Virus record (IMG/VR): IMGVR_UViG_3300020451_002055
Source of the DNA: a virus
Lineage: Duplodnaviria; Heunggongvirae; Uroviricota; Caudoviricetes
DNA length: 64,000 nt
Direction: 5' to 3' (one strand)
The translations under genes and the position numbers were made by a program. Positions 382 through 16,181 of the stretch are shown piece after piece (position 1 is the stretch's first letter; the number at the start of each line of letters is the position of its first letter). Under the pieces are notes generated by a model that saw only the letters and a list, made by a program, of their open reading frames with translations, had not been told where the DNA came from and did no database searches.

Positions 382-454
382 GCCGCCATCGTCTAGTCGG
401 GCAGGATAGCTGCCTCTCAAGCAGCAGACGAGGGTTCGATTCCCTCTGGCGGCA
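382..454 (+). tRNA. tRNA-Glu(CTC)
   Basis: Acceptor GCCGCCA/TGGCGGC, anticodon arm GCTGC-CTCTCAA-GCAGC, T loop GGTTCGATT; no encoded CCA. Confidence 0.92.
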
Positions 455-470
455 CTTCAAAATCAGGTAC

Positions 471-542
471 GGCCCCGTCTTCTAGTGGTCAGGAATCCGG
501 ACTCTCACTCCGGCAACGGCGGTTCGAATCCGCTCGGGGTCA
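471..542 (+). tRNA. tRNA-Glu(CTC)
   Basis: Acceptor GGCCCCG/CGGGGTC, anticodon arm CCGGA-CTCTCAC-TCCGG, GGTTCGAATCC. Confidence 0.93.
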
Positions 543-548
543 TTCATA

Positions 549-623
549 GGCGCTGTAGTTTCTGCTGGTAGAAACGCTGGTCTTTCAAGCCGGAGTCCGA
601 GGGTTCGATCCCCTTCAGCGTCA
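549..623 (+). tRNA. tRNA-Glu(TTC)
   Basis: Acceptor GGCGCTG/CAGCGTC, anticodon arm CTGGT-CTTTCAA-GCCGG, GGTTCGATCC. Confidence 0.88.
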
Positions 624-663
624 TTTGTAGGTGAAAGCTGTTTTGGGTATCTTGGCAAAGCAA

Positions 664-1120
664 ATGAAGACTTGTTCAAAATGCAAAGAAAGCAAACTTG
701 AAGAATGCTTTGCTAAAAAGACCAAAGGTAAATTGCAGCCTTGGTGTAAGAACTGTAACAGGTCGTATCAAAAGAGCCATTACAAAGCAAATAAGCAGAA
801 GAGAGTTTCTCAGGTAAATGAGTACAAGAAAGATCGAAGACTACAACTCAGGCAAAGACTTTATCAGTTCTTGCTTGAAAACCCATGCGTAGACTGCGGA
901 GAAAATGATCCTGTCGTTCTTGAGTTTGACCATGTTCGAGGACAAAAAAACAAGCGACATAAGCTCCATGATCGGCCAATGCTCTTCATGGGACAGGATA
1001 CAAGATGAAATAGCGAAATGCGAAGTACGATGCGCCAATTGCCATCGAAAACAAACAGCAATACGTCAAGGCTGGAAAGTGCAATGGCAGCAAGCAGGAG
1101 AAGATTTCAATGTCAGATAG
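664..1120 (+). pseudogene. HNH homing endonuclease, frameshifted at an A7 run (944-950)
   Basis: N-terminal Zn finger (CSKC..CKNC) and CVDC..LEFDH in one frame; KTSDIS..KCEVRCANCH in the +1 frame. Removing one A fuses them into an intact HNH like 6520..6882. Confidence 0.85.
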
Positions 1121-1409
1121 TGAACAACAAGAGATTCGTCTGCATGGTCCTCATCCGGGCCTTCTCGGAGCCGCTGCTCCGATACCCGAGGAACTACGGC
1201 TTGCAGCCAATGAGCTTGATGGGAAGACCATGAAGCAGATTGATGCTTGGCATGCTCTCAACCGGGTGGCAGTTGAGCTACCGGGTGTCGAACTCAAAGA
1301 ACGCAACTCTTGTTTCCTCGCGACGCTTATGAGTGACGGTCGTCCTGTTCATTGTTGGAGAGTTATCAGTTTCGAGCCAACCGAAGTCGCAGGTGGCAAC
1401 AGCGAGTGA
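1110..1409 (+). CDS. hypothetical protein
   Basis: ORF overlapping the HNH stop, collinear with neighbours. Confidence 0.65.
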   Translation: MSDSEQQEIRLHGPHPGLLGAAAPIPEELRLAANELDGKTMKQIDAWHALNRVAVELPGVELKERNSCFLATLMSDGRPVHCWRVISFEPTEVAGGNSE

Positions 1410-1444
1410 TATACTGAGGCTGTCGTAAAGGGCAGCCGTTTGAA

Positions 1445-1519
1445 GGCCCTATCGTCTAGTCAGGTCTAGGACTCCAGGTTTTCATCCTGGCAACCGGGGT
1501 TCAAATCCCCGTAGGGTCA
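1445..1519 (+). tRNA. tRNA-Glu(TTC)
   Basis: Acceptor GGCCCTA/TAGGGTC, anticodon arm CCAGG-TTTTCAT-CCTGG, GGTTCAAATCC. Confidence 0.93.
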
Positions 1520-1532
1520 TTGGAGATTGAAG

Positions 1533-1712
1533 ATGACAACGCAAGCAGAGCATCCCGAACAGATCGTCAGCCGTACCGAACTCGTCGAGATCCTGATTCG
1601 AGAGAACGGATGCGCCGAGGACGATGCTCAGACGCAAGCAAGCCTCGCCGGTCCCACCGGCCTCATCGTCAAGGGAACTCGCTACATCGTCGGCAAGGGC
1701 GAAGACGACTAA
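1533..1712 (+). CDS. small hypothetical protein
   Basis: GGAG RBS, ATG 1533; stop overlaps next RBS. Confidence 0.65.
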   Translation: MTTQAEHPEQIVSRTELVEILIRENGCAEDDAQTQASLAGPTGLIVKGTRYIVGKGEDD

Positions 1713-1723
1713 GGAGAGGCTTT

Positions 1724-2494
1724 ATGACCGCTGAAACCAAGCGAAAGACGACCTTCATTAGCGAAGGGCCGGATTGGGTCGAAATCGACTCAGACAATAA
1801 TGAGATCAGCCGAGTTCGTAAGCCGACGTTTGAAACAGGCCATGTCATCAAGCCATTCGCCATCTACGGCGGCTACATTCTGAGGGAAATCGCCGGGCAC
1901 GCCGAAGGAACTCGGGTTGGAATCATGACGGTTCCCGGCGGCAAGCTCTACATTCTCAAAGATGGAGAGCAGATTCATCTCGATGCAAAGGCAGGAGAAG
2001 ACTTTGACTTCGATGTGCCGATCAGTGTCATCGAAGAAGCTCCTGATCGAGACGACGATGATCTTCAGATCGATGATCGAGAACGAGTCGCTGACATGCT
2101 CAAGCAGGTCGAAGACGCCGAAGCTGCGATGGAAGAGCATGCCATCGTCGGGGCTGATCTGATCGCGGAAATGATCGCTGCAGAACAGATCAATATGAAG
2201 CCTGAGAATGCTCGGGTTGAAATCTTTCACGGCAACGGAACTCACTCGGACGATGGTTGCCTTATCATCTACGATGATTCAAAAGTTCTGAAGTACGAAA
2301 AGGTCAACATCAAGAAAATGGTCGAGTCTGGTCAGATGCCAGGCTTCATTGTTAAACCTGATCAAGCCGTTCAACTTCTCTTTCTTGCATTGCAAGCGAG
2401 AGAGGCTTTGATGATGCCGAAAGCTTCGATGCAGTTGAGGCTGGGCGTTGCTCATGATCTCTTCAATATCCTCGAAGAAATCGGGATCATCTAA
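1724..2494 (+). CDS. hypothetical protein
   Basis: AGGAGAGG RBS then ATG 1724 (MTAETKRK); upstream extension in ORF track rejected. Confidence 0.8.
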   Translation: MTAETKRKTTFISEGPDWVEIDSDNNEISRVRKPTFETGHVIKPFAIYGGYILREIAGHAEGTRVGIMTVPGGKLYILKDGEQIHLDAKAGEDFDFDVPISVIEEAPDRDDDDLQIDDRERVADMLKQVEDAEAAMEEHAIVGADLIAEMIAAEQINMKPENARVEIFHGNGTHSDDGCLIIYDDSKVLKYEKVNIKKMVESGQMPGFIVKPDQAVQLLFLALQAREALMMPKASMQLRLGVAHDLFNILEEIGII

Positions 2495-2718
2495 TGATCA
2501 GCGAACTACACGATGAGGCGCATCTGATTGCAGATTGCCGAAACGATGATGTGATTGTTGCAGCGCATGCTTTGGCAGAAAGGACAAAAGAATCACGGGT
2601 CTTGCAAGAAATGGTCAAGTTGCATCAGGAAATCAAGACTCAGAACGCAGCAGATGAGAATGGCGGTGTCAACATGATCATCAATACAGATGAATATGCA
2701 TACGCCATCATTGGATAA
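2494..2718 (+). CDS. hypothetical protein
   Basis: TAATG stop/start overlap. Confidence 0.65.
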   Translation: MISELHDEAHLIADCRNDDVIVAAHALAERTKESRVLQEMVKLHQEIKTQNAADENGGVNMIINTDEYAYAIIG

Positions 2719-2719
2719 T

Positions 2720-2793
2720 GCTCTCGTAGCTCAGTTGGATAGAGCATCGGTTTCCTAAACCGAAGGTCGTTGGTTCGAGCCCAACCGGGAGTG
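2720..2793 (+). tRNA. tRNA-Arg(CCT)
   Basis: GCTCTCG/CGGGAGT acceptor, TCGGT-TTCCTAA-ACCGA arm, GGTTCGAGCC. Confidence 0.93.
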
Positions 2794-2797
2794 CTTT

Positions 2798-3118
2798 ATG
2801 AGTACGAATCTTTCAGACATGACGCCTGCCGAGCTTGATGCTGAGATCGGAAAGCTTGAAGCTCAGATTGAACACATCAAGCAGGTCAAATCTGAAGTTG
2901 AAAGTCTGACGCCTGCGCAGCAGCTTGCAACTGCTTTGCATAAGAGGCAATGCCGCCATAACCATACAGACGGTTGCGGATGGTATTACGAGAAGTGGAC
3001 TGACTGCCAAGGGAAATACTCATCAAAGAGAACCTGGGTCGAGAGAGCAGAAAAACTGCTCGCGACCGGTAAGTCAATGGAAGAGCTTATCGAGATCGCG
3101 GACCTGATGAGAGGATAG
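2798..3118 (+). CDS. hypothetical phage protein (CxxNHxDGC motif)
   Basis: Coiled-coil N-terminus, CRHNHTDGCGWYYE motif. Confidence 0.75.
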   Translation: MSTNLSDMTPAELDAEIGKLEAQIEHIKQVKSEVESLTPAQQLATALHKRQCRHNHTDGCGWYYEKWTDCQGKYSSKRTWVERAEKLLATGKSMEELIEIADLMRG

Positions 3119-4151
3119 GAGCAAAACCGACCCCTGATCCATTATAGTAACGGGTAGCAATCGATTGCTTGATTGGCAGCGGAACCTTCCGGCCAATCTG
3201 GCCGATAGCCGCCTGCACATCAATGATGCCGTTTCCGTATTTGGCATCTTTACCCGCATCACCTAGATCAATGGAGGTCTTTCTAAGATGCTCTCGAACG
3301 TCCTCGACCGTGTTGACCGGAGTTCTACCGCCGAACTTTCTATGCTTGGCAATCATCAGGGCAACAATACCCGTTATCCAAGGAGTCGCAAACGAGGTGC
3401 CCGACGATCGGCGGTATTCGCTGCCCGGAAACGTACTGCGAACGTCAACGCCGGGGGCGACGAAATCGAGGTTAGGGCCAGTGTTGCTGAAGTCTGCTTT
3501 CAGGACATCCCTATCGACAGCCCCTACCGCAATGGTCTCCCTGTAAGCAGCAGGCCAAACGACATCGCTATGCTCGTCGAGGCCGAAATTGCCCGCTGCG
3601 CAGATCATCGGGATGTCAGCTTCGTAAGCCCGGCGTACCGCATCGGTCAGCCAGGTATTGTTCGCGCTCATGTAGATCGAGAAGTTGATGATATCGACGC
3701 CATCGTCGATGGCCTGATGGATTCCATTCAGGATATCGTCGTAGCTTCCGCCTGCTTCGGCGTTGAGGCAACGGTAGGGTCTGACTTGAGCCTTCGGTGC
3801 AACTCCATGTACGCCGTGGCCGTTGCGTTTGGCACAGATGATGCCGGTAACGAACGTTCCGTGGCCGTGTTCATCCGACATCGGACTATCCGGGTTCACA
3901 AAAGCCTTACCCGGAAGAAGATTACCCGTCAAGTCAACATGATTGATGTCGCAACCGGAGTCGATGACTCCGACGACAACGCCCTCTCCTTCGGTCTGAT
4001 GCCAGACAGAAGGGACATGGTAGTTAGCGATCTGGTATGCGCTCTCGTTCTCCCAAGAACGAGGGTCCACGATGTCATCTGCTCCCGCAGCTTTGGCCGA
4101 GTAGTTCATGCCCTTCTTTTCTGTCTCAAGTACCTCCTTTCCTCCATGCAT
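3087..4151 (-). CDS. S8 (subtilisin-like) serine peptidase
   Basis: Catalytic motifs VIDSG, HGHGTFVTG, AAGN, SGTSFATP; start may be the ATG at 4109. Confidence 0.93.
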   Translation of the reverse strand: MHGGKEVLETEKKGMNYSAKAAGADDIVDPRSWENESAYQIANYHVPSVWHQTEGEGVVVGVIDSGCDINHVDLTGNLLPGKAFVNPDSPMSDEHGHGTFVTGIICAKRNGHGVHGVAPKAQVRPYRCLNAEAGGSYDDILNGIHQAIDDGVDIINFSIYMSANNTWLTDAVRRAYEADIPMICAAGNFGLDEHSDVVWPAAYRETIAVGAVDRDVLKADFSNTGPNLDFVAPGVDVRSTFPGSEYRRSSGTSFATPWITGIVALMIAKHRKFGGRTPVNTVEDVREHLRKTSIDLGDAGKDAKYGNGIIDVQAAIGQIGRKVPLPIKQSIATRYYNGSGVGFAPILSSGPRSR

Positions 4152-4329
4152 TCCGCAAAGCGAGTGAAAGACGACGGCGATAGCATGGCAACATGGAACG
4201 ACTCGTCTTCTTCATCGGACTCACTCTGTTCATTCTCGGAATCGCCGGATGCAGCTTCCATGAGGGCAACACCGAGCCTATGGGGTGGGCTGCTTTCATC
4301 GGTTTTTTGATGATGAGCGGCGATATTAG

Positions 4330-4953
4330 TTGGAACTCAAGCAGAGAATCCAAAGGAAACTGACCGTGCCTTGGCGATACTGGAAACCGGAACTCAACTG
4401 CGATAAGACCTTGCAAGAGGTTCTTGATACCATGCCTAGGGATCCTGCGAACAAGATTCCTTGGCAGGTCAAGATGTTTGAGAATCCCGGCAGTCCTCTC
4501 GCCATTCCGGGTGCGATCGATCTCTTCGGGCACGACTGCCTTCATGCCCTTCTCTGCACTTCGTTCTATACGCAATGCGAAGCTTGGACCATCGGCTTTA
4601 CGATGGGAACCTGCGACGGACTGAAAGACTGGCACATCAATCTCCTCAAGCTCTGGTCTCGCTCCTATCCGGGCGAATACCGTCTTGGAGGAGATGACCT
4701 TCATCACCTTGATGAGGGCATTGCATTCGGCAGGCGAGCAGCGCGTCATGAGTCTCGTTGCCGCAACATCAATCAGTTCAATTTCCGCGATCCAAAAATC
4801 CTCGCTATGAAGATGAGCGATCTGCGAGAGATGTTCGGTCTCGACTGGATTGATGAAGATCACGAGTATCAGGATTGGGCGTTGAAGCGATGGTCGGACA
4901 AACCGCTGATGAGCAGATGTCCGTATGAAGACGGCGTTCTTGAAAAGGCGTAA
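4330..4953 (+). CDS. Coq4-like metal-binding protein
   Basis: HDCLH-x11-E matches the Coq4 HDxxH-x11-E motif. Confidence 0.6.
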   Translation: MELKQRIQRKLTVPWRYWKPELNCDKTLQEVLDTMPRDPANKIPWQVKMFENPGSPLAIPGAIDLFGHDCLHALLCTSFYTQCEAWTIGFTMGTCDGLKDWHINLLKLWSRSYPGEYRLGGDDLHHLDEGIAFGRRAARHESRCRNINQFNFRDPKILAMKMSDLREMFGLDWIDEDHEYQDWALKRWSDKPLMSRCPYEDGVLEKA

Positions 4954-4955
4954 AG

Positions 4956-5384
4956 ATGGGCGTTACCTACACGGCGTACATGGCGATCGGTCTGCGTCTC
5001 GATGGCGAAAGACTGTACGAAGACAAGCTGGTCAAGCGCGGCGAGCATGACTTCGATTCATCGGTTCTCTTTCATCCTCAGACAGGAGAGAAGCTTTGGG
5101 CTTCCGAGAGGTTTCCTCTCGATGGCTCTGAGTATATCGATGATACCTTCGGTCCGTTCGAATATGCAGGAGAAGATAGCTGCGAACGAAGCGATTGGAA
5201 GGCCGTTGTCGGTAGGGTCTTGACAAAAGAGACCGCCTACTACGACGAGAAGCAGAAAGCTCCGATCGACCTGAACGAGATCGATTTGAACAATCTCAAG
5301 AGCGAACTCCGCGATTACTTTGAGCCCCTTGGACTGTGGGACGAATCGCAGTTCGGAGCTTGGCTCATCATGAGAGTTTGCTGA
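4956..5384 (+). CDS. hypothetical protein
   Basis: Tightly packed collinear ORF. Confidence 0.75.
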   Translation: MGVTYTAYMAIGLRLDGERLYEDKLVKRGEHDFDSSVLFHPQTGEKLWASERFPLDGSEYIDDTFGPFEYAGEDSCERSDWKAVVGRVLTKETAYYDEKQKAPIDLNEIDLNNLKSELRDYFEPLGLWDESQFGAWLIMRVC

Positions 5385-5441
5385 ATGTAAGTTGCTGGTG
5401 TCAACGGCATCGCTTATATTCTCATCAGAGGAAAATCATCT

Positions 5442-5882
5442 ATGACAGCAGTTCTTACGCCATCCTCAACCCGCGTCGTCGAAGGCCTCTTTACCGAGGC
5501 ATCTTCCGAGGCGGACCTCAACATGGGTCGCATCATCAGCGATGCGTTCCGTATGTCTGGCGTTTACTGCCCCGACTGCGATTACCCGCAAAACGCAGAA
5601 GAGTATGAGCGTTTGCTCATCCGGTACATTCCGGCTTGCATTCATGCCCATCGAGCAAAAATCCGTTACGAGCATTACGGATACAGGTTCATGAGCTTCA
5701 GCAACAAAACAGAACACGAAGCTTACCTCGAAATGGTTCGAGCAGATCAAATTATGCATGACATCAGGCGAGAGATGAAACCTTTCGCTCCCTGTAGTCA
5801 TTGTCGAGTTCGCTTCAACCCAACGTCGAGGTTGAGGCATGGTCCCCAGAGGTTTCCCTCTATCAAGGAGTTCATGGAATGA
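5442..5882 (+). CDS. hypothetical protein with two CxxC motifs
   Basis: CPDC and CSHC; GAGG RBS. Confidence 0.7.
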   Translation: MTAVLTPSSTRVVEGLFTEASSEADLNMGRIISDAFRMSGVYCPDCDYPQNAEEYERLLIRYIPACIHAHRAKIRYEHYGYRFMSFSNKTEHEAYLEMVRADQIMHDIRREMKPFAPCSHCRVRFNPTSRLRHGPQRFPSIKEFME

Positions 5883-6304
5883 GCGACGAAGGTACTACGA
5901 CCGCCCCAACTCTGCCGCACGCGGTGCAGATTCGAGCGGATGTCAAGAAACGAGTCAGCGATGACTGCAAGAGCGGAGTAGTTCGCGATCGCATCGTCAA
6001 CCAACTCGCCGAGGAAGAGATCGACAAGCGCACGAAGGCGCTTGCCGCTGCTCTGACGAAGCGCGATGAGATCCAGCGCGATATCGACAAGATCACGAAG
6101 AACCCGGGTCAGAAGACCTTCACCATCGCTACGGATGGCTCCGGCAAGGTTGACCTCAAGAAGCCGGATACGGCCACCTTCGACGAGAGCCAGGCCAAGG
6201 AGTACAACCAGCTTCTTGACCGTCTCGAAAAGGTGGACAAGGCGATCGAGATGGCGATGAACCCGGACAACCCGGACTTCACCAAGCTCAAAGACCTGAA
6301 GTAA
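5879..6304 (+). CDS. hypothetical coiled-coil protein
   Basis: ATGA overlap (MSDEGTT), AGGAG RBS, biased codons, terminator downstream. Confidence 0.8.
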   Translation: MSDEGTTTAPTLPHAVQIRADVKKRVSDDCKSGVVRDRIVNQLAEEEIDKRTKALAAALTKRDEIQRDIDKITKNPGQKTFTIATDGSGKVDLKKPDTATFDESQAKEYNQLLDRLEKVDKAIEMAMNPDNPDFTKLKDLK

Positions 6305-6327
6305 CTCCATTCCCGTTCTCAGGTCTC

Positions 6328-6350
6328 CCGCCCAACGTAGGGCGGTTTTT
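6328..6350 (+). terminator. Rho-independent terminator
   Basis: CCGCCC-AACGTA-GGGCGG-TTTTT. Confidence 0.7.
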
Positions 6351-6377
6351 GTTCCGGTAGCTCAACTGGATAGAGCA
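6351..6377 (+). pseudogene. 5' half of an interrupted tRNA-Arg(TCT)
   Basis: GTTCCGG-TA-GCTC-AACTGGATA-GAGC-A is an acceptor strand plus D arm; GTTCCGG pairs with CCGGAGC at 6910-6916. Confidence 0.85.
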
Positions 6378-6875
6378 GGAGCAGTAGGGCGGTAGCTTAA
6401 TTGGATAAAGCAACGGTCTTCTAAACCGTCGAGTGCGGGTTCGAGTCCCGCCCGCCCTGTTCAGTAGATTAGAAGGAGTTATTCTAATCTGTCCGTATTC
6501 ATAGTCAGGAGGTCTGACTATGGATACCAAGCATTGCCCGAAGTGTGATACCGAAAAGAGTCTCGAAGAGTTCTACAAGAAAGGAGCAGATCGCTACCAG
6601 CCTTATTGCAAGTCTTGTTTCAACCAATATTGCCAAGATCGATGGAGAAGGCGAAAGGTTGAAGCAATCAAAGCAAAGGGAGGCAGGTGTAGTAAATGCG
6701 GATACGATAAAAACTACGCTGCTCTTGAGTTCCATCACCGAGACGATGAAGATAAAGAGATGGATTGGAGCAAGGCGAGATTAGCTTCGGAAAAGAGGAT
6801 GCTTGCGGAGCTTGACAAATGCGACTTGGTTTGTCGTAACTGTCATGCAGAACTTCATAACCCTCAAGGTATGAA
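6378..6875 (+). mobile_element. Inserted cassette (replacement tRNA-Arg plus HNH endonuclease) inside a tRNA-Arg gene
   Basis: Lies exactly between the two complementary halves of a tRNA-Arg(TCT). Confidence 0.7.
6386..6459 (+). tRNA. tRNA-Arg(TCT)
   Basis: AGGGCGG/CCGCCCT acceptor, ACGGT-CTTCTAA-ACCGT arm, GGTTCGAGTCC. Confidence 0.92.
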
Positions 6876-6882
6876 CTTCTAA
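6520..6882 (+). CDS. HNH homing endonuclease
   Basis: CPKC..CKSC Zn finger, CSKCG..ALEFHH..KCDLVCRNCH; AGGAGG RBS. Confidence 0.92.
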   Translation: MDTKHCPKCDTEKSLEEFYKKGADRYQPYCKSCFNQYCQDRWRRRKVEAIKAKGGRCSKCGYDKNYAALEFHHRDDEDKEMDWSKARLASEKRMLAELDKCDLVCRNCHAELHNPQGMNF

Positions 6883-6917
6883 ACCGTAGGTTGTGGGTTC
6901 GAGTCCCACCCGGAGCG
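6876..6917 (+). pseudogene. 3' half of interrupted tRNA-Arg(TCT)
   Basis: CTTCTAA loop, ACCGT, T arm GTGGG-TTCGAGT-CCCAC, CCGGAGC-G. Confidence 0.85.
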
Positions 6918-6976
6918 TTAGGTGGCATGTACTCTACAGCGGAGACTTAGGTTCGTGGGCAAGATCGGAGCCAACA

Positions 6977-7540
6977 GTGGATGCTCAGATGTTCAAAGGC
7001 ATTCTTGCTGACATCAAGGACGACGACCGATACAGACATGGGATCAGATTTCGAGCTAAAGGGCGGCGCAAACAATCCTCCATCAGCAACCACATTGCTG
7101 AGCTTGAAGCCAACCTGAATCAGCTCTCGGCGCGTCGGGGAATTTCGGAATATGAGTATTGGGCTCTTATGCTGCTCATTCATACTCATGATACGATGAA
7201 AATGCATGCTGTTCCGCATGCTAAGATCAGAGACAGATTCAGTCATTCTTCTCTCGCCCGCGACTTCGCTTCTGATTACTGCAGAGATGAAGACCTCTTG
7301 CAGATGATTCAGCAACATGAAGTCCCGTTCTCAATTTACAGGAAAGAACGCAAGGGCGAAGATGTCTCAGAAAAGCTTGACGAACTGTTCGGGTCAGTTC
7401 GGAACTGGCGTCTTTTCCTGATGTTCATCATCATTGATAACTGTATTTCAGGTAGTTCAAGACGACCTGTTTACTGGATTATCGAACAAGCGAACAAGAG
7501 ATTTGCTACGGGCATCGATGAGGATTGGGTTATTGACTAG
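6977..7540 (+). CDS. HD-domain phosphohydrolase
   Basis: H...HTHDTMK...HS...H...D pattern; GGAG then GTG 6977. Confidence 0.75.
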   Translation: MDAQMFKGILADIKDDDRYRHGIRFRAKGRRKQSSISNHIAELEANLNQLSARRGISEYEYWALMLLIHTHDTMKMHAVPHAKIRDRFSHSSLARDFASDYCRDEDLLQMIQQHEVPFSIYRKERKGEDVSEKLDELFGSVRNWRLFLMFIIIDNCISGSSRRPVYWIIEQANKRFATGIDEDWVID

Positions 7541-7575
7541 AAGCAGGTGGCGTAGCTTTCTGCGATAATGGACTC

Positions 7576-7941
7576 ATGAGACTTCTTGCCTCCATACTGA
7601 TTGCCGCATGCTTGCTTCTCTCTGGCTGCAGCGATCCTGTCAAAGACCTTGGTCATTCGTATAGATACTCCATCTCAGAGGCCTTCATCGTCGTCGAGGT
7701 CTACCATGACGAAGAAACGATTGGTCAGGAGTATGCTCTGGCGGTCTACAATATTACTTCGATCAAGGATTATGAAACCTACCAGGAGACTCCCTTTGTA
7801 GTCGTCAAGACCGCAGACGGGGAGTCGTTTTATCTGTACGACATCACCATGCGCGAGTTTTTGGCCCTGTCTGGCGAGGCAATGGGGCCATGGATGCTCG
7901 ATTTTCCTGCCTCGTCAGTACCTCAAAGGAGTAGTCCATGA
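7576..7941 (+). CDS. putative lipoprotein
   Basis: Signal peptide with lipobox LSGC. Confidence 0.75.
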   Translation: MRLLASILIAACLLLSGCSDPVKDLGHSYRYSISEAFIVVEVYHDEETIGQEYALAVYNITSIKDYETYQETPFVVVKTADGESFYLYDITMREFLALSGEAMGPWMLDFPASSVPQRSSP

Positions 7942-8663
7942 GTTTCTTTACAACGCAGAGAAAAGCGCCGACATTGTTTTGGTGCATGGTCATCGCGTTC
8001 ATCGCGTTGATGGCATTTCCCGCTGACGCATTCGGTCAGCGAAGCAGAAGCAGAAGCAGCGGGAGCCGCAGCAGCTACAAGCAACCCTCAAGGAACAAGA
8101 GCGCTTCGCAGAACCGTTCGAGAACCAACAAGCAGGCTCGACCGTCCCAGAAGAACAACAGCAGCAAAAGCTGGGGCAGCAGCAACAAGAGCAAGTCAAC
8201 GAAGGCAACCAAAGCCGATCGCGCTCTGCATGATCGAGCCAAGAAGCAGGGAACTCATTTCCAGAACCGACAGCAAGCGACGGCTGCATTTGCTACAAAG
8301 AAGGGACCGGAGCTTCGCGCGAAGAACCCGGTTCGCTTCGACAGCAAGCCAGCAACGAGGCCGAGCTACATTCCGCAGACCTATTCATCTGGCGGTAATA
8401 CATACAACATCTCTTACAATCCTGGCTACGGCGGGTACGGCTACATGAACGCATTGGGTACATGGGTCATGTATGACATCATGTGGAACCAGGCCTTCGT
8501 CAACAACCAGATGCGAACCTACGGCTACGCATACGGTCCTGCTCCATCTGCCGGGCCGGGTGCCGGAATGGTTCTCGGCATCATCGTCGGCGTCGTTGTC
8601 ATCGGAGGCGTTATCTTCTTCGTTGTCGCATCGAACAGCGAGAGCGAAAGCAGAGCCGCCTAA
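7938..8663 (+). CDS. secreted/membrane protein with Ser/Arg-rich and Gly/Tyr-rich segments
   Basis: N-terminal signal (ADA-FG), low-complexity middle, C-terminal TM helix. Confidence 0.8.
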   Translation: MSFFTTQRKAPTLFWCMVIAFIALMAFPADAFGQRSRSRSSGSRSSYKQPSRNKSASQNRSRTNKQARPSQKNNSSKSWGSSNKSKSTKATKADRALHDRAKKQGTHFQNRQQATAAFATKKGPELRAKNPVRFDSKPATRPSYIPQTYSSGGNTYNISYNPGYGGYGYMNALGTWVMYDIMWNQAFVNNQMRTYGYAYGPAPSAGPGAGMVLGIIVGVVVIGGVIFFVVASNSESESRAA

Positions 8664-9349
8664 TGGAAGACCTGCGCGAAATCCAAACGTCTGCGTATTG
8701 GGAGGCGGTCAAACCGGGCACGATCGTCCATCTGACCGATACGCAGACGATGCTCGCCTCGATCGGAACAGGTCAGTCGCAAGACAAGAGCTTCACCATC
8801 CGCTCTGTCTGGCGAACTGAGGAACTCGGAAGCCTTTGCGTCTGGTACATCTGCCGGATGGAAGCAATGGATCATGAGGAACTGTTCCTGATCGCTAAGG
8901 TGGTCGGAGATGTTGCTGATCTTGGGATTTACTTCCCGATCGAAGGCATCGATCCCGACAATCGTCAAGGTCTTATTGATGATCAAGAGGCGTTCTGGCT
9001 TTTCCAAGAGCCGGACAACCCGGATGATCTTGATCCGCTCGAACTGGAATACACTACATCGTTCTCGCTGACAATGGAAAATGACTTCGACGGCGAGTTT
9101 GATGTCGAGTATGTTCAGACCGATGTCGGGCCGCTTCAAGCTCGAACGACTTACGATCCTCCCGAGGATGGAGTCACAGACCATTTGGCAACGGTTGTCG
9201 AGTTCGCCGCTGATACGGACAAGACAGAGAATACCCGCGCCATGATTCTCGAAATCGGCGAAGAGGACAACGAAGATGGAGGCCTTGTTACAGTTCTCCT
9301 CGGAGACCTCATCGCTCCCGATGTCGAGATCAACATCATGACCGTCTGA
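8663..9349 (+). CDS. acidic hypothetical protein, DUF4178-like
   Basis: TAATG overlap; 'VKPGTIV' start and 'LEIGE...G..I' end resemble DUF4178 (by eye). Confidence 0.65.
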   Translation: MEDLREIQTSAYWEAVKPGTIVHLTDTQTMLASIGTGQSQDKSFTIRSVWRTEELGSLCVWYICRMEAMDHEELFLIAKVVGDVADLGIYFPIEGIDPDNRQGLIDDQEAFWLFQEPDNPDDLDPLELEYTTSFSLTMENDFDGEFDVEYVQTDVGPLQARTTYDPPEDGVTDHLATVVEFAADTDKTENTRAMILEIGEEDNEDGGLVTVLLGDLIAPDVEINIMTV

Positions 9350-9357
9350 TCGAGTTC

Positions 9358-9386
9358 CGCCTGCCTTACCGGGCAGGCGTTTCTTT
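9358..9386 (+). terminator. Rho-independent terminator
   Basis: CGCCTGCC/GGCAGGCG hairpin then TTTCTTT. Confidence 0.65.
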
Positions 9387-9402
9387 CCTAAAGGAGAACC
9401 CC

Positions 9403-10518
9403 ATGCGTCTAATCGCCGCCATTGTCTTTCTCATCAGTTTCATCTCTCCCGCGATTGCGCAGGAAGAGGAAGTTCAGGACAGGAGAGCCGTCAAGGTCGC
9501 TGTCTATGAATCCGACCCGTTTGTTTCAAGGGCAGACGATGACTCGCTGACCGGATACGACATCGCTCTGATCGAGCAGATCGCATTCATCAATCAATGG
9601 AACATTTCCTATGTTCAGGTTGATAGGTTCAGCGACTTGCTTGAGAGAGTCGAAGACGAAGAAGTTGACATCGCCATCTCAAGCATCACGATCACGCCCG
9701 AAAGGGAACGATCGGTCGATTTCTCTCAACCCTATATGCATACGGGTCTTGGTATCCTTGTCTCCGAAGACAGAAGCACGACGATGAGCGAAGCAATCGG
9801 CTCATGGATTTCTACCAGAGTTCCTTTGGCGGTTGATTTGCTGACGATCTGCTTCTTCTTCATCATTGCTCTGATGTTTTGGGGCATCGTTCTTTACCTG
9901 ACTGATGAACAGCGGAAAGCTGATGCGGCTGATGAAGACGGACTGACTTTCATGGAAGTGGTTCGAGGTAGCGCGGATTCGATGTGGCTTGCCTTTACAA
10001 CCGGATCGACAATCGGCTACGGCGAAGTTTACCCGAGAAAGACCGCGGCTCGAATCACCGCTGTCTTCTGCTTCTTTACGGTTGCGATTCTCGTTAGCTC
10101 GCTGACCGCAACGATCACCTCATTCAACGTTGTTCAGCAGATCAACGTCGGCATCCAAGGCGCGGGCGATCTCAAGGGCAAGACTGTCGCAACGGTCGGA
10201 GGAACGACCAGCGTTTCTTCTGCCGCGAGGTACGGAGCCAACGTCGAGACATACGACAACATTGACCAGGCAATCGCTGCTGTCATTCTCGGGAATGCTG
10301 ACGCTGTTGTCTACGACGAGCCTCGACTGCGGTACTTCGCCAACAACCAAGGCAGGAACAAGGTCCGCTTGGTTGATACGGTCTTCGAGTCGCAGGACTA
10401 CGGCATTGCGTTCGTTCAAGGCAGCAATCTGCGGGAATCCGCCAACGTCGCCCTTCTTTCCATGCAAGACAAGGGCGAGTTGTCGGAGTTCGAGCATAGT
10501 TATTTCGGAGCGCCATGA
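9403..10518 (+). CDS. GluR0-like ligand-gated K+ channel (split solute-binding domain plus 2TM pore)
   Basis: Signal peptide, S1 lobe (PF..GYDI..ITITPER..VDFSQPY), TM-pore TIGYG-TM, S2 lobe (GTTS..VYDEP..YGIAF). Confidence 0.9.
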   Translation: MRLIAAIVFLISFISPAIAQEEEVQDRRAVKVAVYESDPFVSRADDDSLTGYDIALIEQIAFINQWNISYVQVDRFSDLLERVEDEEVDIAISSITITPERERSVDFSQPYMHTGLGILVSEDRSTTMSEAIGSWISTRVPLAVDLLTICFFFIIALMFWGIVLYLTDEQRKADAADEDGLTFMEVVRGSADSMWLAFTTGSTIGYGEVYPRKTAARITAVFCFFTVAILVSSLTATITSFNVVQQINVGIQGAGDLKGKTVATVGGTTSVSSAARYGANVETYDNIDQAIAAVILGNADAVVYDEPRLRYFANNQGRNKVRLVDTVFESQDYGIAFVQGSNLRESANVALLSMQDKGELSEFEHSYFGAP

Positions 10519-10573
10519 ACAGGTGACGCTCTAGAGGCATACAATCAATAGGCACCATTTCAAAGGAACCACC

Positions 10574-12061
10574 ATGGCTACCCCATTCAGGACCAGAATC
10601 CCTCGACTGACAGACTCATACAAGGTTTCCCATGCGGCTCAGTATCCAGACGGAACCTCCAAGGTATACAGCTACTTTGAGTCCCGAGGAGGCAAGTTCC
10701 CTGTTACTGGTCTTTTTGGCCTCCAATACATCCTCATGGCTTACCTCGAAGGCGAGGTAGCTACGCAGCGAGACATCAACCGAGATCAGCACTTTTTCGC
10801 TGCCCACTTCTTCGGGAATGGAGCCCTTCACAACAAGGCAGGTTGGCAGCGCATCGTCGATGTTCATGGCGGGCGACTGCCTGTCCGCATCATGGCGGCT
10901 CCCGAGGGAACGATCGCCCCGAACAGCAACGTCCTCTTCACCATCGAAAACCTCGATCCTCAACTCTACTGGTTGACCAATTACATCGAGTCGATCCTCC
11001 TGCATGCATGGTCGGCTTCTACCGTCATGACCGGCAGCCGCAACAGCAAGCAGATTCTCTTCAACGCTCTTGAGCGGTCTGGCGATCCTTCGGGCCTCCC
11101 GTTCAAGCTGCATGATTTTGGCTTCCGCGGCGTTTCGAGCGTCGAGACCGCTGCAACCGCTGGAGCGGCCCATCTTGTCAACTTCATGGGAACGGACACG
11201 CTCATCGCCTGCGATCTCATTGCTCAATACTATTCGGGTAAGCGACCCGAAGAAGTTGAAGCGATGAGCGATGACGAGTACGGTCGTTTCATCGCAGAGA
11301 ACATGGCCGGGCACTCCATTCCGGCGTCCGAGCATTCGACCATCACGACATGGGGCGAGGATGGGGAGATCGATGCATTCCGCAACATGCTCAAAGTCTA
11401 CCCGAGCGGTCTTGTTGCATGCGTCTCGGACTCTTGGGATATCGATCGAGCATGCAGCGAGCTTTGGCCCTCGCTCAAGGGCGAAATTGAAGCACGCGAC
11501 GGTCTTCTCGTTGTCCGTCCTGACTCTGGCGAGCCCACCGATGTTGTTCCTCGCATCCTTGGTCATCTCGCCGAGGGATTCGGATACACGACCAACAGCA
11601 AGGGCTTCAAGGTTCTGCATGATCAGGTCCGCGTCATTCAAGGCGACGGCATCGACTTCGACAGCATCTCGACCATCCTCGATGCGGTCATGGATGCAGG
11701 TTTTTCTGCCGACAACATTGCCTTCGGATCTGGCGGCGGACTGCTGCAGAAGGTCAACCGCGATACGCAGCGGGTTGCCATCAAGTGCAGCCATGCGATC
11801 ATCAATGGCGAAGAAACGGATGTTTTCAAGCGTCCGAAGACTGACCCGACAAAGGACAGCAAGCGAGGAAGGCTCGCTCTCGTTCAGACTCATGACGGCC
11901 TCGCTACGGTTCAGGAATCGGATGCCGACAATTACGCTGGCGGCAACCAGTTGATCGAGGTCTTCAACAACGGCGAGGTTTGCAACCTGCAGTCGTTCTC
12001 TGACATTCGTCGTCGGGCGGAACTTCCTGAGGTTGCTGAACTGTCTGCCGCTACTGCCTAA
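10574..12061 (+). CDS. nadV: nicotinamide phosphoribosyltransferase
   Basis: TDSYKVSH, LHDFGFRG, PASEHS, VSDSWD, VRPDSG, IQGDG, FGSGGGLLQ motifs. Confidence 0.96.
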   Translation: MATPFRTRIPRLTDSYKVSHAAQYPDGTSKVYSYFESRGGKFPVTGLFGLQYILMAYLEGEVATQRDINRDQHFFAAHFFGNGALHNKAGWQRIVDVHGGRLPVRIMAAPEGTIAPNSNVLFTIENLDPQLYWLTNYIESILLHAWSASTVMTGSRNSKQILFNALERSGDPSGLPFKLHDFGFRGVSSVETAATAGAAHLVNFMGTDTLIACDLIAQYYSGKRPEEVEAMSDDEYGRFIAENMAGHSIPASEHSTITTWGEDGEIDAFRNMLKVYPSGLVACVSDSWDIDRACSELWPSLKGEIEARDGLLVVRPDSGEPTDVVPRILGHLAEGFGYTTNSKGFKVLHDQVRVIQGDGIDFDSISTILDAVMDAGFSADNIAFGSGGGLLQKVNRDTQRVAIKCSHAIINGEETDVFKRPKTDPTKDSKRGRLALVQTHDGLATVQESDADNYAGGNQLIEVFNNGEVCNLQSFSDIRRRAELPEVAELSAATA

Positions 12062-12083
12062 TCAACCTGACGGAGGCTCGCTG

Positions 12084-12818
12084 ATGGATAATGTCTTTCT
12101 CAAGAGCGTTCAGTCGTTCATTACTCGCTTCCCTGAAGGCAGGACTCCTTGCTCGTTCTTTGTGACAGGCGGAGGATTCAGTCTGCTCGACATCGGAAAG
12201 GTGCCGGGAGCAAGTAAGGTTTTGGCTGATGCGTACATTGCGTACCATATGCTCGAAGAGATTGCTGTCCTCAATACCGTTGTTGCGGATCATACCGACA
12301 AACTGACCAACGGAGACATCGGCTTCGTTTCTCCATGGACTACTTACTGGTATGCCCGAGCTATGATGGCTCGGCATGCTGCGACTATTCCTGATGCTAC
12401 GATTTGCGTTGTCAATGCGAGCCTGACAACTAATCGGTGGCGTCGAGGAAAGAATGAAGCTTTCTTTGCTGTTGTCAACAGACCAGTGGACAGCAAAGAC
12501 GGCGAAGTTCGCATGTTCAGACTCGATATGGATAAGCTTGAGGAGGACGAATACGCCCGAATCGAGCATCAACATCAAATCGCTTTGTCGGGTCTTTCAG
12601 ATCCGAGCCAAGCCCCTTTGCATCCGATCACACAACGCCGCGCCTTTGAAGATGAGAAGGTTGCTCAGGTTGCTATGGGACTTCTTCTTGAAGACCCAAC
12701 GCTCGTCCGCTTGATCGAGCATAGCGAAGCTGTCTATCCAATCGAGATTGAAGGCGATCCCACAAACCCCGAAAGCTTCGTCCCTCAGTTGGACGCGCCA
12801 TGGACAGCAAGGCCCTGA
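12084..12818 (+). CDS. CinA/PncC-fold-like protein
   Basis: VTGGG..VPGAS..Y..VS..A.AM..SL...RRG pattern like the N-terminal domain of CinA-like/cytidylyltransferase fusion proteins. Confidence 0.55.
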   Translation: MDNVFLKSVQSFITRFPEGRTPCSFFVTGGGFSLLDIGKVPGASKVLADAYIAYHMLEEIAVLNTVVADHTDKLTNGDIGFVSPWTTYWYARAMMARHAATIPDATICVVNASLTTNRWRRGKNEAFFAVVNRPVDSKDGEVRMFRLDMDKLEEDEYARIEHQHQIALSGLSDPSQAPLHPITQRRAFEDEKVAQVAMGLLLEDPTLVRLIEHSEAVYPIEIEGDPTNPESFVPQLDAPWTARP

Positions 12819-12819
12819 T

Positions 12820-13464
12820 ATGCCCAAGATGACGCTCGAACAAGCCCATGCTCGCGTTCAGCGAGACTCCCTCTTTGCCTTCGTCTACGACGACGGCTTT
12901 GCTCAGCCGGTCTACGACCTTGAGGCCCCCTGGGTCGAGCGAGAGGTTCATTTGCTGCCCGGCAGCTTCAATCCGATCCATCGAGCCCATGAAGCGATGT
13001 TCGAGCAGATGCGAAGGAACGGCATCTACGCAGCCTACGAGATCAGCATGGAGCGGATCGACAAGGAGTTCCTGACCTACGAAGAACTGCAGGCACGACT
13101 TGTTCAGTTCAACGGTAAGGGTCCGGTCCTTGTTGACCGCTGGCCCTACTTCATGCAGAAAGCGGGTATCCTCCGCAACTGGAACCTGACTTTCCATGTC
13201 GGCGTTGATACTGCCATCCGGCTTGTCGAGTCTCATGGGATTGCCGGAATCCAAGGAATTGCGGCTGATTTCGTCGTCTACGACCGCATTTGGGAAAACA
13301 GACGGCAAGGCCTCGGAAGCTGCATGGTCTTCGCCAACCGGACTCCCTCGAACTTTCGACCCGGCAATACGCCTGATGAGACTCTTCTCGGGTTGTCTTC
13401 TACTGCTATCCGGGCGGGTCATCAGACCCCGGACGGCAGAGCAATCGCCTCAGCGACCAACTGA
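12820..13464 (+). CDS. NMN adenylyltransferase-like (cytidylyltransferase superfamily)
   Basis: LPGSFNPIHRAH (HxGH-like), F..KA, VGVDT, LSSTAIR. Confidence 0.85.
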   Translation: MPKMTLEQAHARVQRDSLFAFVYDDGFAQPVYDLEAPWVEREVHLLPGSFNPIHRAHEAMFEQMRRNGIYAAYEISMERIDKEFLTYEELQARLVQFNGKGPVLVDRWPYFMQKAGILRNWNLTFHVGVDTAIRLVESHGIAGIQGIAADFVVYDRIWENRRQGLGSCMVFANRTPSNFRPGNTPDETLLGLSSTAIRAGHQTPDGRAIASATN

Positions 13465-13495
13465 AGATTTCCGCGAAAAAAAGTTGGATTGGGGA

Positions 13496-13523
13496 TTGAC
13501 AACCGCCGCAAGGCGGTTATTCT
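13496..13523 (+). promoter_or_regulatory. sigma70-like promoter of the ncRNA/tRNA operon, with a palindromic spacer
   Basis: TTGACA-N16-TATTCT; AACCGCC-GCAA-GGCGGTT inverted repeat spans the spacer. Confidence 0.6.
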
Positions 13524-13788
13524 TTGACCTCATGCCCTCGGTTGGGCATACGAAACGGAGTAGACTATGCGACCCGCCAACGACATCCCGAACCCCGCCA
13601 AGGGGACAGGGCCGTGCCTTGAAAAAGGCACAGTCGGCGTTGATCGCGCCTCCGTCGATAGCAGCGATCAACTCTGATACCTGCTCCCCTCCGACCAAAA
13701 ATCTGGTAAAGCTTGAAGGATTTTTCGCAGCTTTGCGTGAATCCTTACGCTACCCCTCAACTTCATGACGAAGTATAGGGACCGACGC

Positions 13789-13806
13789 AGCGACCTACCA
13801 ATCGCT
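13789..13806 (+). repeat. 18-nt hairpin repeat, copy 1
   Basis: AGCGA-CCTACCAA-TCGCT, identical at 16694-16711. Confidence 0.85.
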
Positions 13807-13859
13807 TAGTCAGAGACAAATACTGATCAGCAGGTGAAAGCCTGGTTTGGTATATTGCA

Positions 13860-13923
13860 GTTTGGGTTGAAGAATCAAGGTTATCTTGACAATGGCTCCT
13901 TGGTTCAACTCCCTTACCCAAAC
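13860..13923 (+). ncRNA. Y RNA-like #1 (minimal hairpin type)
   Basis: GTTTGGGT(T)GA pairs with TTACCCAAAC (bulged U); pyrimidine-rich bulge; GAATCAAGG/CCTTGGTTC; GGTTATC motif. Confidence 0.8.
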
Positions 13924-13928
13924 GTCAT

Positions 13929-14002
13929 CAGAGTGTAGCTCAGTTTGGCAGAGCGTCTGGTTCGGGGCCAGAAGGCCGGAGGTTCAAATCCTCTCACTCT
14001 GA
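13929..14002 (+). tRNA. tRNA-Pro(CGG)
   Basis: CAGAGTG/CACTCTG, TCTGG-TTCGGGG-CCAGA, GGTTCAAATCC. Confidence 0.93.
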
Positions 14003-14019
14003 CTTTTGAAAACTGAATA
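14003..14019 (+). promoter_or_regulatory. boxA-like antitermination motif
   Basis: CTTTTGAAAACTGAATA; recurs at 14877, 15360 and 15502. Confidence 0.6.
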
Positions 14020-14030
14020 AAGGACGAAGT

Positions 14031-14222
14031 ATGGATGCAAAGAGAGCATTGTTAGACGTAGCAGACCGGGCACTAACTCATCAGTTCATCATGTCGAAAA
14101 GACTGAAACCGGGTGAGTTCCTAGAACGGTATACTACGGCAGAAGAACGAGAAGCTTTGAAAGGCCTCAGGAGTGAGGACGCTCAAAGCCCTCTAAGACA
14201 CATGCTTGATTTGTATCGATGA
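14031..14222 (+). CDS. small hypothetical protein
   Basis: AAGGA RBS, 63 aa. Confidence 0.6.
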   Translation: MDAKRALLDVADRALTHQFIMSKRLKPGEFLERYTTAEEREALKGLRSEDAQSPLRHMLDLYR

Positions 14223-14227
14223 ACGTA

Positions 14228-14387
14228 GGAGGTTTGGGCAGTAAGTTGCGATGAGAACCGTTGCGATCCGGGGACTTGAGAGACTTACCTCTCCCCGGTC
14301 GAGACACCCCACATCGGCTGGCACGTTGCTCAACAGTTCGTTGGAAGTCGAGGTTTGGATACCTCGATAGACCAGCCTCAAACCTCC
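14228..14387 (+). ncRNA. orphan structured RNA (~160 nt)
   Basis: Closing helix GGAGGTTTGGG/CTCAAACCTCC; inner helices CCGGGGA/TCCCCGG and TCGAGGT/ACCTCGA; no credible ORF. Confidence 0.55.
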
Positions 14388-14403
14388 ACAACATAAGGAT
14401 CAG

Positions 14404-14598
14404 ATGATGCTTGGAAGCCTCATTAGCAAAGACACCGAAAGGCAGATCGCCGTAGCAGTTCGAGCGGCGAGCCTCGCTAAGGCAGCAGAATCTCTCGCAG
14501 TTGCGTCATCCAATGTCGCAGCCGCAGACGAGCGTCTCGCTCAAGACCTTCGGGTCACAGTCGGTCGTTTGCATGATGAAGTCAAAAGCCTCATCTGA
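14404..14598 (+). CDS. small hypothetical protein
   Basis: TAAGGA RBS, helical 64 aa. Confidence 0.6.
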   Translation: MMLGSLISKDTERQIAVAVRAASLAKAAESLAVASSNVAAADERLAQDLRVTVGRLHDEVKSLI

Positions 14599-14605
14599 TC
14601 CTAGA

Positions 14606-14679
14606 CAGGGCGTAGCTCAGCTTGGTAGAGCGTCTGGTTTGGGACCAGAAGGCCGCACGTTCGAATCGTGTCGCCCTGA
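14606..14679 (+). tRNA. tRNA-Pro(TGG)
   Basis: CAGGGCG/CGCCCTG, TCTGG-TTTGGGA-CCAGA, GTTCGAATC. Confidence 0.94.
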
Positions 14680-14683
14680 TTGA

Positions 14684-14887
14684 ATGGCAAGTATTTGTTC
14701 GAAACATCAAGAGTATGATCCGGATTGCGATCTATGCAAAGTAGACCTTTCTGATAGTCCTCTGTTTCAACAAATGCATGCCGAAGCAGAAGCAGCAGGC
14801 ACGCATGTCTGCGAGGAATGCAAGTTCCTCTATTACAAGACTGTCGATTCATGTCCGCTCTGCGGTCATCGACGGATTGACAACTGA
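14684..14887 (+). CDS. small zinc-finger protein
   Basis: CSKH, CDLC, CEEC, CPLC. Confidence 0.7.
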   Translation: MASICSKHQEYDPDCDLCKVDLSDSPLFQQMHAEAEAAGTHVCEECKFLYYKTVDSCPLCGHRRIDN

Positions 14888-14900
14888 ATAGACTTTTGAT

Positions 14901-15072
14901 CTGTAGGAACCTGTTTAGGCAGGGAAATAAGGCCGGTATTACCAAACCTCGGTACACGGTCGCGAGCCTGAGGAAGGCAAGCCTGTCGGAGTAAGCTCCC
15001 GATTCTGTCCAAGAGTAAGAGGTTGTGAGGACGAGCAGATCAAGCAGTCTACGGGATAAAACCCGTCTACTG
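14901..15072 (+). ncRNA. orphan structured RNA (~170 nt)
   Basis: Follows a boxA-like motif; hairpins CCTGT/GCAGG, AACCTC/GAGGTT, TCGGAG/CTCCCGA, ACGGG/CCCGT. Confidence 0.45.
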
Positions 15073-15078
15073 CTTTCA

Positions 15079-15138
15079 TGGGCTGAAGAGTCAAGGTTAA
15101 CTTGGTAATGTTGCACCCTTGCCTCACTAACTTGCCCA
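15079..15138 (+). ncRNA. Y RNA-like #2 (minimal hairpin type)
   Basis: TGGGC(T)GA/TTGCCCA; GAGTCAAGG/CCTTGCCTC; GGTTAAC motif. Confidence 0.8.
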
Positions 15139-15146
15139 GACAATCA

Positions 15147-15227
15147 AAGATCGGACTGAAGAATAGAAGGTTAACTTCAATTTTGATTTGAAACCCAACA
15201 CCCTTCATTCACTCCTTGTCCGTTCTT
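15147..15227 (+). ncRNA. Y RNA-like #3 (minimal hairpin type)
   Basis: CGGAC(T)GA/TTGTCCG; GAATAGAAGG/CCTTCATTC; GGTTAAC motif. Confidence 0.8.
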
Positions 15228-15230
15228 GTT

Positions 15231-15359: not shown

Positions 15360-15377
15360 TTGAAAAACTGAATACAA

Positions 15378-15502: not shown

Positions 15503-15523
15503 TTGAAAACTGAATAGACTTTT

Positions 15524-15626: not shown

Positions 15627-15630
15627 TTTT

Positions 15631-15761: not shown

Positions 15762-15764
15762 CTT

Positions 15765-15836: not shown

Positions 15837-15848
15837 TTTTGAACATTG

Positions 15849-16108: not shown

Positions 16109-16181
16109 TTCTCGTCATTTCAACATACCCGGTTGACCTCTACCTGAAAGGGATACGTCAATAATGGCCGGGTTTACATTT

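Follow-up and report, generated by a model that had tools for sequence, protein, structure and literature searches.

The usual view is that homing endonuclease genes survive in one of two settings, within self-splicing introns or inteins or next to their target; free-standing ones spread by cutting alleles that do not carry them, co-converting flanking markers. SegF of phage T4 and F-CphI of a cyanophage (the latter with a psbA intron) are reportedly examples of intron-less or collaborative homing, and the insertion of mobE in phage Aeh1 is said to split nrdA and to leave the host gene functional. In these systems the host gene works as two polypeptides, or is kept functional through an adjacent intron or resistant polymorphisms.

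Homing at tRNA genes has been described for T4 SegB, a free-standing GIY-YIG endonuclease that is encoded in the tRNA cluster, cuts within the tRNA genes of phages lacking it and spreads together with the neighbouring tRNAs (PMC2330249; PMC13096335); the F-Tfl HNH enzymes of phage T5 are named in the same literature (PMC2330249, PMC13096335). Group I introns occur in the anticodon loops of bacterial tRNA genes, including those for tRNA-Arg(CCU), tRNA-Ile(CAU), tRNA-Leu and a tRNA-fMet with an intron-encoded endonuclease, and a 2014 review states that phages had so far yielded no intron within a tRNA gene (PMC3984707). The literature on mobE and I-TevIII includes PMC2790892, and HNH genes have likewise been reported beside the tRNA arrays of bacteria (PMC8421152).

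The locus described here lies in a 64,000-nt stretch of DNA (the window) from a virus of the Caudoviricetes (IMG/VR record IMGVR_UViG_3300020451_002055). Judged from its sequence and that of its relatives, it is probably the scar of an invasion, in a giant phage, by a free-standing homing cassette composed of an HNH gene and a tRNA-Arg(UCU) gene. An earlier note on this DNA had likened it to T4 SegB, and the comparison is apt (PMC2330249). In each case the nuclease gene lies among phage tRNA genes, segB also abutting a tRNA-Arg gene, and expression is probably held down, for SegB by a hairpin and tRNA processing. SegB differs in being a GIY-YIG enzyme that recognises a T-arm motif common to many tRNAs and uses long flanks to replace a homologous region, and a split target with a nested spare copy is not described for it. 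The window, in contrast, encodes an HNH enzyme that is linked specifically to tRNA-Arg(UCU/CCU), and the two halves of the target remain on either side of the cassette. With the group I introns of tRNA genes it shares insertion in the anticodon region and a homing endonuclease gene inside the interruption, but there is no ribozyme, and function is kept by a second gene rather than by splicing. Unlike the SegF, F-CphI and mobE systems, the host gene is killed and a complete substitute is carried in the insert. In the papers searched, no description was found of a target tRNA gene whose halves flank a spare tRNA and a nuclease gene, and neither the arginine specificity of this HNH lineage nor its link to tRNA group I introns was found described. 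Assignment of the locus to intron-less homing, as a new form of it, appears well supported by its anatomy and the comparative data.

The features of the locus are collected in Table 1. The 5' half of the broken gene (tRNA-A) directly follows a terminator-like hairpin and comprises, in order, the acceptor strand GTTCCGG, TA, the D arm GCTC-AACTGGATA-GAGC and A26. The 3' half starts with the loop CTTCTAA, the 3' anticodon-stem strand ACCGT and the variable loop, and continues with the T arm GTGGG-TTCGAGT-CCCAC, the acceptor strand CCGGAGC and G73. The two acceptor strands pair at 7/7 positions (one pair being G-U), and an HMM of tRNA-Arg(YCU) genes run with nhmmer matches the 5' half at model positions 2-28 (E 0.0017) and the 3' half at positions 31-73 (E 1.4e-8). 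Neither half shows decay, and their acceptor, D and T stems are perfect. When ACGGT is inserted between them ARAGORN gives a clean tRNA-Arg(tct) call, and when they are joined without it no tRNA is called; since the call depends on these added bases, the 5' anticodon-stem strand (nt 27-31) is truly absent. The earlier note, made from the letters alone, had claimed a tRNA-Arg(UCU) split in this way, the loss of its 5' anticodon-stem strand, and an intact but differing tRNA-Arg(UCU) between the halves. Sequence, HMM matches and acceptor pairing bear out the first of these, the two ARAGORN runs the second, and ARAGORN together with the Rfam match the third; the description in that note holds in all its details at the coordinates it gives.

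Table 1. Features of the split tRNA-Arg(UCU) locus and its immediate surroundings (positions are those of the window).
Feature	Position	Strand	Evidence or remark
Terminator-like hairpin, stem CCGCCC/GGGCGG then TTTTT	6328-6350	+	Closes upstream gene 5801-6304
10-nt direct repeat GTAGGGCGGT	6337-6346 and 6384-6393	+	Brackets the 5' half
5' half of broken tRNA-Arg(UCU) (tRNA-A)	6351-6377	+	Sequence, nhmmer, acceptor pairing
Left joint, 8 nt, GGAGCAGT	6378-6385	+	Sequence; stands in place of the lost anticodon-stem strand
Nested intact tRNA-Arg(UCU) (tRNA-B)	6386-6459	+	ARAGORN; Rfam tRNA 72.6 bits, full length
Hairpin 1, 10-bp stem, just 3' of nested tRNA	6465-6491	+	Folding
Hairpin 2, 14-bp stem	6495-6527	+	Folding; Shine-Dalgarno in loop, start codon (6520) in 3' arm
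HNH endonuclease gene, intact, 120 aa	6520-6882	+	ORF; phrog_2255
3' half of tRNA-A	6876-6917	+	Sequence, nhmmer; 86% identity to the equivalent part of tRNA-B

Between the halves lie 498 bases, of which the nested tRNA takes up 74 and the ORF 356, leaving 68. The last two codons of the ORF overlap the 3' half, so that tRNA-A provides the final codon and the stop; the stop codon TAA (6880-6882) is nt 36-38 of the old anticodon loop CTTCTAA, as had been proposed. At the left joint a GAGCAG tandem repeat spans the junction, and GGAGC equals the final 5 nt of the old 3' acceptor strand. The 10-nt direct repeat bracketing the 5' half is possibly microhomology from a rearrangement. The two tRNA genes have the same anticodon arm, and their bodies are about 85% identical (17/20 and 29/34). 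An integrase-type insertion was considered and rejected: the halves are complementary parts of one gene (nt 1-26 and 32-76) and not the repeats of an att-type event, and the insert holds no ORF of integrase size.

The ORF is an intact predicted HNH endonuclease, with an N-terminal zinc ribbon followed by an HNH core. It matches phrog_2255 ('HNH endonuclease', E 9.5e-34) and four further HNH PHROGs, and the catalytic motif columns (CxxC...HH...CxxCH) are present; when 12 relatives are aligned, no variation is seen at C57, C60, H72, H73, C105, N107, C108, H109 or H113. Searches of Pfam gave sub-threshold matches only (AI2M-like HNH, E 0.044), as did a PDB profile search (McrA, E 0.064). An AF2 model (pLDDT 87.5) had no Foldseek match at E<=0.001; the weak matches include many HNH nucleases, among them Cap5, Hpy99I, T5 SciA, Gme, endonuclease VII and the Cas9 HNH domain, and VIA gave Z 5.2 to the N-terminal ribbon of Hpy99I and Z 3.3 to the HNH cores of Gme and Cap5. 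Because the curated Pfam, PDB and structural matches are weak or sub-threshold, the family assignment is taken from sequence. Hundreds of relatives occur in cultured phages, and an identical HNH protein is present on 12 contigs.

The gene has its own Shine-Dalgarno sequence and ATG. The 60-nt spacer that separates it from the nested tRNA folds into two hairpins, and the minimum free energy of this region is -29.6 kcal/mol (z -4.2). Hairpin 2 is likely to act as a translational brake on the HNH gene. Burial of the start codon in a hairpin is a device described for homing endonuclease genes of T4 (PMC2330249). Across loci, no conservation of the spacer was found beyond a short AGATTAGA motif common to the window and the related contig L095.

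Scans of GTDB genomes and JGI metagenomes with the family alignment yielded 160 loci, and linkage was counted among the 80 full-length relatives of the window HNH protein. An intact tRNA-Arg(UCU/CCU) gene lies within 400 nt in 38 of the 80, Arg-like tRNA halves lie within 700 nt in 18/80, and one or the other is nearby in 48/80. In a tally of neighbouring tRNA genes Arg(tct) was by far the most frequent (29), followed by Arg(cct) with 12 and by Leu(taa) and Pro(tgg) with 10 each, and a tRNA-Arg(UCU) gene accompanies 17 of the 19 closest relatives. The linkage is also phylogenetically clustered: on the HNH tree the Arg-linked label was as concentrated in none of 500 shuffles, and a clade of 18 (SH-aLRT 95) consists solely of Arg-linked members. 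The best match in a cultured phage, PAK_P4, has the order tRNA-Arg, HNH, tRNA-Lys, and Klebsiella phage DP carries an HNH relative within its tRNA array. The HNH protein of P0002, 73% identical to that of the window, likewise ends in ...DF*, and its stop codon is probably also the TAA of an old anticodon loop. On contig C25 of G003 (the contig of locus L006), four paralogues of the family were seen within 5 kb of a single tRNA cluster.

The relation of this family to group I introns was also examined. The window HNH gene is classed as free-standing rather than carried by an intron or intein, and no group I intron was detected in the window, either with Rfam (E<=10 over 5500-8000) or with an nhmmer profile built from 11 related introns. 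A group I intron in tRNA-A was rejected as a candidate: no P3-P9 core was recognised, and 68 nt of insert remain to hold one. The claim that there is no room for a self-splicing intron is upheld by this small remainder and by the lack of a ribozyme match in the Rfam and nhmmer searches. A link to group I introns of tRNA genes, which the earlier note did not notice, is seen elsewhere in the family. Some relatives that match only the C-terminal, catalytic half (residues about 40-116) are carried by introns of tRNA genes that Rfam recognises as group I (66-100 bits), and others lie just upstream of intron-bearing tRNA(CAU) genes. Among the full-length relatives, L004, L005 and L011 are in or beside tRNA-Arg(UCU) genes interrupted between CTT and CTAA. 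The inserts of L004 and L005 (about 600 nt) have no Rfam match at E<=0.1; nhmmer gives a marginal match in the P7 region (E 0.06-0.08). Two interrupted tRNA genes that lie beside HNH genes of the window's family carry short anticodon-loop inserts, whose length of about 50-57 nt could not accommodate a group I core. One is the tRNA-Arg(UCU) gene of L011 (1246-1376), with its insert between CTT and CTAA, and the other is a gene in L045 (2231-2352) with an Ile/Met-like 3' exon.

The combination of a split tRNA-Arg gene, a nested tRNA-Arg(UCU) and an HNH gene recurs on six unrelated contigs. The HNH gene is in sense, as in the window, in L095, L119 and L155, and antisense in L006, L018 and L103. 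The closest of these is L095, a 488-kb contig whose HNH protein is 62% identical to that of the window and is its sister on the tree; the two have no similarity outside the cassette, and their genomic contexts are thus independent. In addition, L135 has a bare HNH gene between tRNA halves, with no nested tRNA, and in L096 the 3' half lies at the end of the contig. The acceptor strands of the locus's own halves pair 7/7 in all eight complete cases (window included), compared with 3/56 mismatched combinations of halves. In none of these eight loci did the Rfam and nhmmer searches give a group I signal. The proposal of the earlier note, an intron-less unit of HNH gene and own tRNA-Arg(UCU) inserted in a resident tRNA-Arg gene, is supported by these six recurrent loci and by the Hymenobacter case described below.

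The halves range from pristine, as in the window, to eroded: the T arm is broken in L018, the 5' piece of L155 is 20 nt long, and the 3' piece of L119 consists of the T arm only. Scars would be expected to show decay to such differing degrees. There is rather little variation at the right junction: in the window, L096 and L155 the HNH gene takes its stop codon, TAA, from the old loop. The left junction differs between loci, lying anywhere from nt 20 to nt 34, and so is not a fixed insertion site. The nested tRNAs are pairwise 49-78% identical, and a single monophyletic lineage of them is not demonstrable from genes of 75 nt; given this low identity and the poorly conserved spacer, the unit is either old or was assembled more than once.

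Some tRNA genes at the surveyed loci are unusual in themselves. The nested tRNA-Arg(UCU) of L103 (1413-1498, minus strand) has no normal D arm and a long extra arm; it was missed by ARAGORN, and in Rfam matched only tRNA-Sec (31 bits). Another odd D arm (TGGTGAAA..GGATATCA) is common to L095, L097 and L110. In L168 (285-434) one tRNA is nested in another: a whole tRNA(CUA) of 75 nt sits in the anticodon loop of a tRNA-Ile(UAU)-like gene, whose halves enclose no nuclease gene.

An empty and a filled version of one site were found in Hymenobacter. In sister genomes a tRNA-Pro(UGG) gene is followed, after 17 or more nt, by a GC-rich native tRNA-Arg(UCU) gene. At the same site Hymenobacter caeli has tRNA-Pro, an antisense HNH gene and a foreign, AT-rich tRNA-Arg(UCU) with encoded CCA, in flanks that are 91-93% identical to those of two sister genomes, and its assembly contains no other copy of the native tRNA-Arg(UCU). 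The site is thus polymorphic for presence of the cassette in this relative, with the native tRNA replaced. From these sequences, the pair shows that the HNH and tRNA-Arg genes can move as a unit, which would be able to assume the role of the resident gene. A third Hymenobacter species (G041, locus L084) has, at the site that is filled by the cassette in H. caeli, a different HNH-like ORF with an in-frame TAG (2623-3046), lying between tRNA-Pro and a native-type tRNA-Arg gene.

For the window phage itself, the earlier note had suggested looking for the empty allele in related phages. None was found by exact searches with a 27-mer and a 34-mer in IMG/VR and the JGI metagenomes. Scans of IMG/VR anchored on proteins (the HNH and three flanking ORFs) detected no relatives of the phage, blastn against INPHARED returned generic tRNA matches only, and overall no close relative was found in IMG/VR, the JGI metagenomes, INPHARED or the GTDB genomes.

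Comparison of the broken and nested genes points to the D stem as a candidate determinant of immunity. The D stem is GCTC/GAGC in tRNA-A and GCTT/AAGC, with A20, in tRNA-B, so that the 5' bodies differ at pair 13-22 (C-G in tRNA-A, T-A in tRNA-B) and at one D-loop base, and the left break in the window falls directly after GAGCA. The 5' D-stem strand of interrupted tRNA-Arg genes is GCTC in all 11 cases (ACTC in L119), and the 3' strand, retained in ten of them, is GAGC in eight, GAGT in L119 and GAGG in L006. Native Hymenobacter tRNA-Arg genes have GCTC/GAGC in 4/4 cases. None of the seven nested tRNAs has GCTC/GAGC or ACTC/GAGT. A D stem of the GCTC/GAGC type is found in 4/23 HNH-linked UCU tRNAs without visible halves, and in about 6/10 unlinked Arg tRNAs of the same loci. 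The D stem may accordingly form part of the HNH recognition site, from which the spare tRNA would escape through compensatory changes; what hints at cleavage resistance of the nested tRNA is this pattern across loci. The contrast could partly reflect the composition of lineages rather than selection for immunity. Since tRNA-B has the anticodon arm of tRNA-A and a body 85% identical to it, any immunity would rest on very few bases.

The following course of events is proposed. The predicted HNH enzyme would cut or nick tRNA-Arg genes near the boundary of the D stem and the anticodon arm, and repair from cassette-bearing DNA would copy the tRNA and HNH genes into the break. The resident gene would be left as two non-functional halves, with a further loss of 5 nt in the window, and when the cassette homes again these old halves would probably act as short arms of homology. 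AGA would still be decoded, by the nested tRNA, so that the insertion would cost the phage nothing; the spare tRNA would in this way play the part that a self-splicing intron plays for related nucleases. It may itself escape cutting, possibly through its altered D stem, and hairpin 2 would limit translation of the HNH protein. A wider proposal, for which the balance of likelihood is about even, is that this HNH lineage is specialised on tRNA-Arg(UCU/CCU) genes, its insertion being made harmless, interchangeably, either by a self-splicing group I intron or by a complete spare tRNA-Arg gene within the insert, which compensatory D-stem changes at pair 13-22 and nearby would render immune. The halves would then serve as portable homology arms, and the lineage would hop among unrelated phages and bacterial chromosomes (Hymenobacter, Rhodothermales), driving the turnover of tRNA-Arg genes.

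Other explanations of the locus must be weighed against invasion by an HNH and tRNA-Arg cassette. A mobile group I intron that carried this HNH in the anticodon loop of tRNA-A may have decayed, losing its ribozyme and acquiring a second tRNA-Arg inside it as compensation. This concerns the origin of the locus and is partly compatible with a homing cassette, and it gains some appeal from the C-terminal-only HNH relatives in or beside group I introns of tRNA genes and from the interruption of tRNA-Arg(UCU) between CTT and CTAA in L004, L005 and L011, a site that the right junction of the window fits. It is nevertheless unlikely, since it needs the chance capture of a tRNA in a dead intron, independently in at least six loci; moreover, no remnant of a ribozyme is present at any of the eight intron-less split loci, that of the window included, the group I signal in L004 and L005 is itself only marginal, and the end of the 5' exon is missing in the window.

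It is very unlikely that a passive rearrangement or an assembly artefact, with no nuclease-driven mobility, produced the arrangement. The 10-nt direct repeat and the tandem hexamer at the left joint do suggest a microhomology-mediated event, but the halves are exactly complementary parts of one gene, and the HNH gene between them is intact, strongly linked to tRNA-Arg and represented by an identical protein on 12 contigs. Seven other assemblies, each independent, show this architecture as well, which makes misassembly of the window unlikely. Least credible of all is a functional split tRNA, in which RNase P and RNase Z would free the nested tRNA and the halves would then join or cooperate. The perfect, undecayed stems of the halves and the position of the whole unit on one strand behind a terminator would suit it; against this, with nt 27-31 absent the anticodon stem cannot form, and we know of no bacterial or phage pathway that joins the products of RNase P and RNase Z. 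The halves at related loci, moreover, are in every stage of decay (L018, L155 and L119), and in Hymenobacter the native gene has been fully replaced.

Other parts of the window also carry unusual tRNA-related features. Across 382-16341 the isoacceptors Glu-CUC, Glu-UUC and Asp-GUC each occur twice, the two copies having different bodies; turnover of tRNAs through incoming cassettes is consistent with this. The window's second HNH gene (631-1120), which belongs to another subfamily, lies between two tRNA-Glu(UUC) genes (549-623 and 1445-1519) that differ from each other; no tRNA-Glu fragments were found flanking it. An A7 run (about 944-950) interrupts its reading frame; the gene could be a pseudogene, or the run could be a slippage site or reflect a sequencing error. 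Upstream of a Ro60/TROVE-like ORF lie three RNA genes in tandem, each about 125-130 nt long (15233-15761 and 17263-18933). They have tRNA acceptor, D and T arms, with a common insert of about 55 nt replacing a plain anticodon arm, and while the third passes the Rfam threshold for tRNA (49 bits), the first two fall below it.

Besides residence in a self-splicing element or beside the target, the locus appears to show a third option for a homing endonuclease gene, which is to destroy its target gene and supply a functional copy that is probably immune. If this is true, it would explain the sequence-diverse tRNA duplicates and the tRNA fragments in phage tRNA clusters, and would provide a mechanism for the horizontal replacement of tRNA genes, those of bacterial chromosomes included. 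The loci would also supply natural pairs of cut and uncut tRNA genes that are only a few bases apart, useful for studying how HNH enzymes read DNA, and would offer a living comparison for the origin of the association between endonuclease genes and group I introns.
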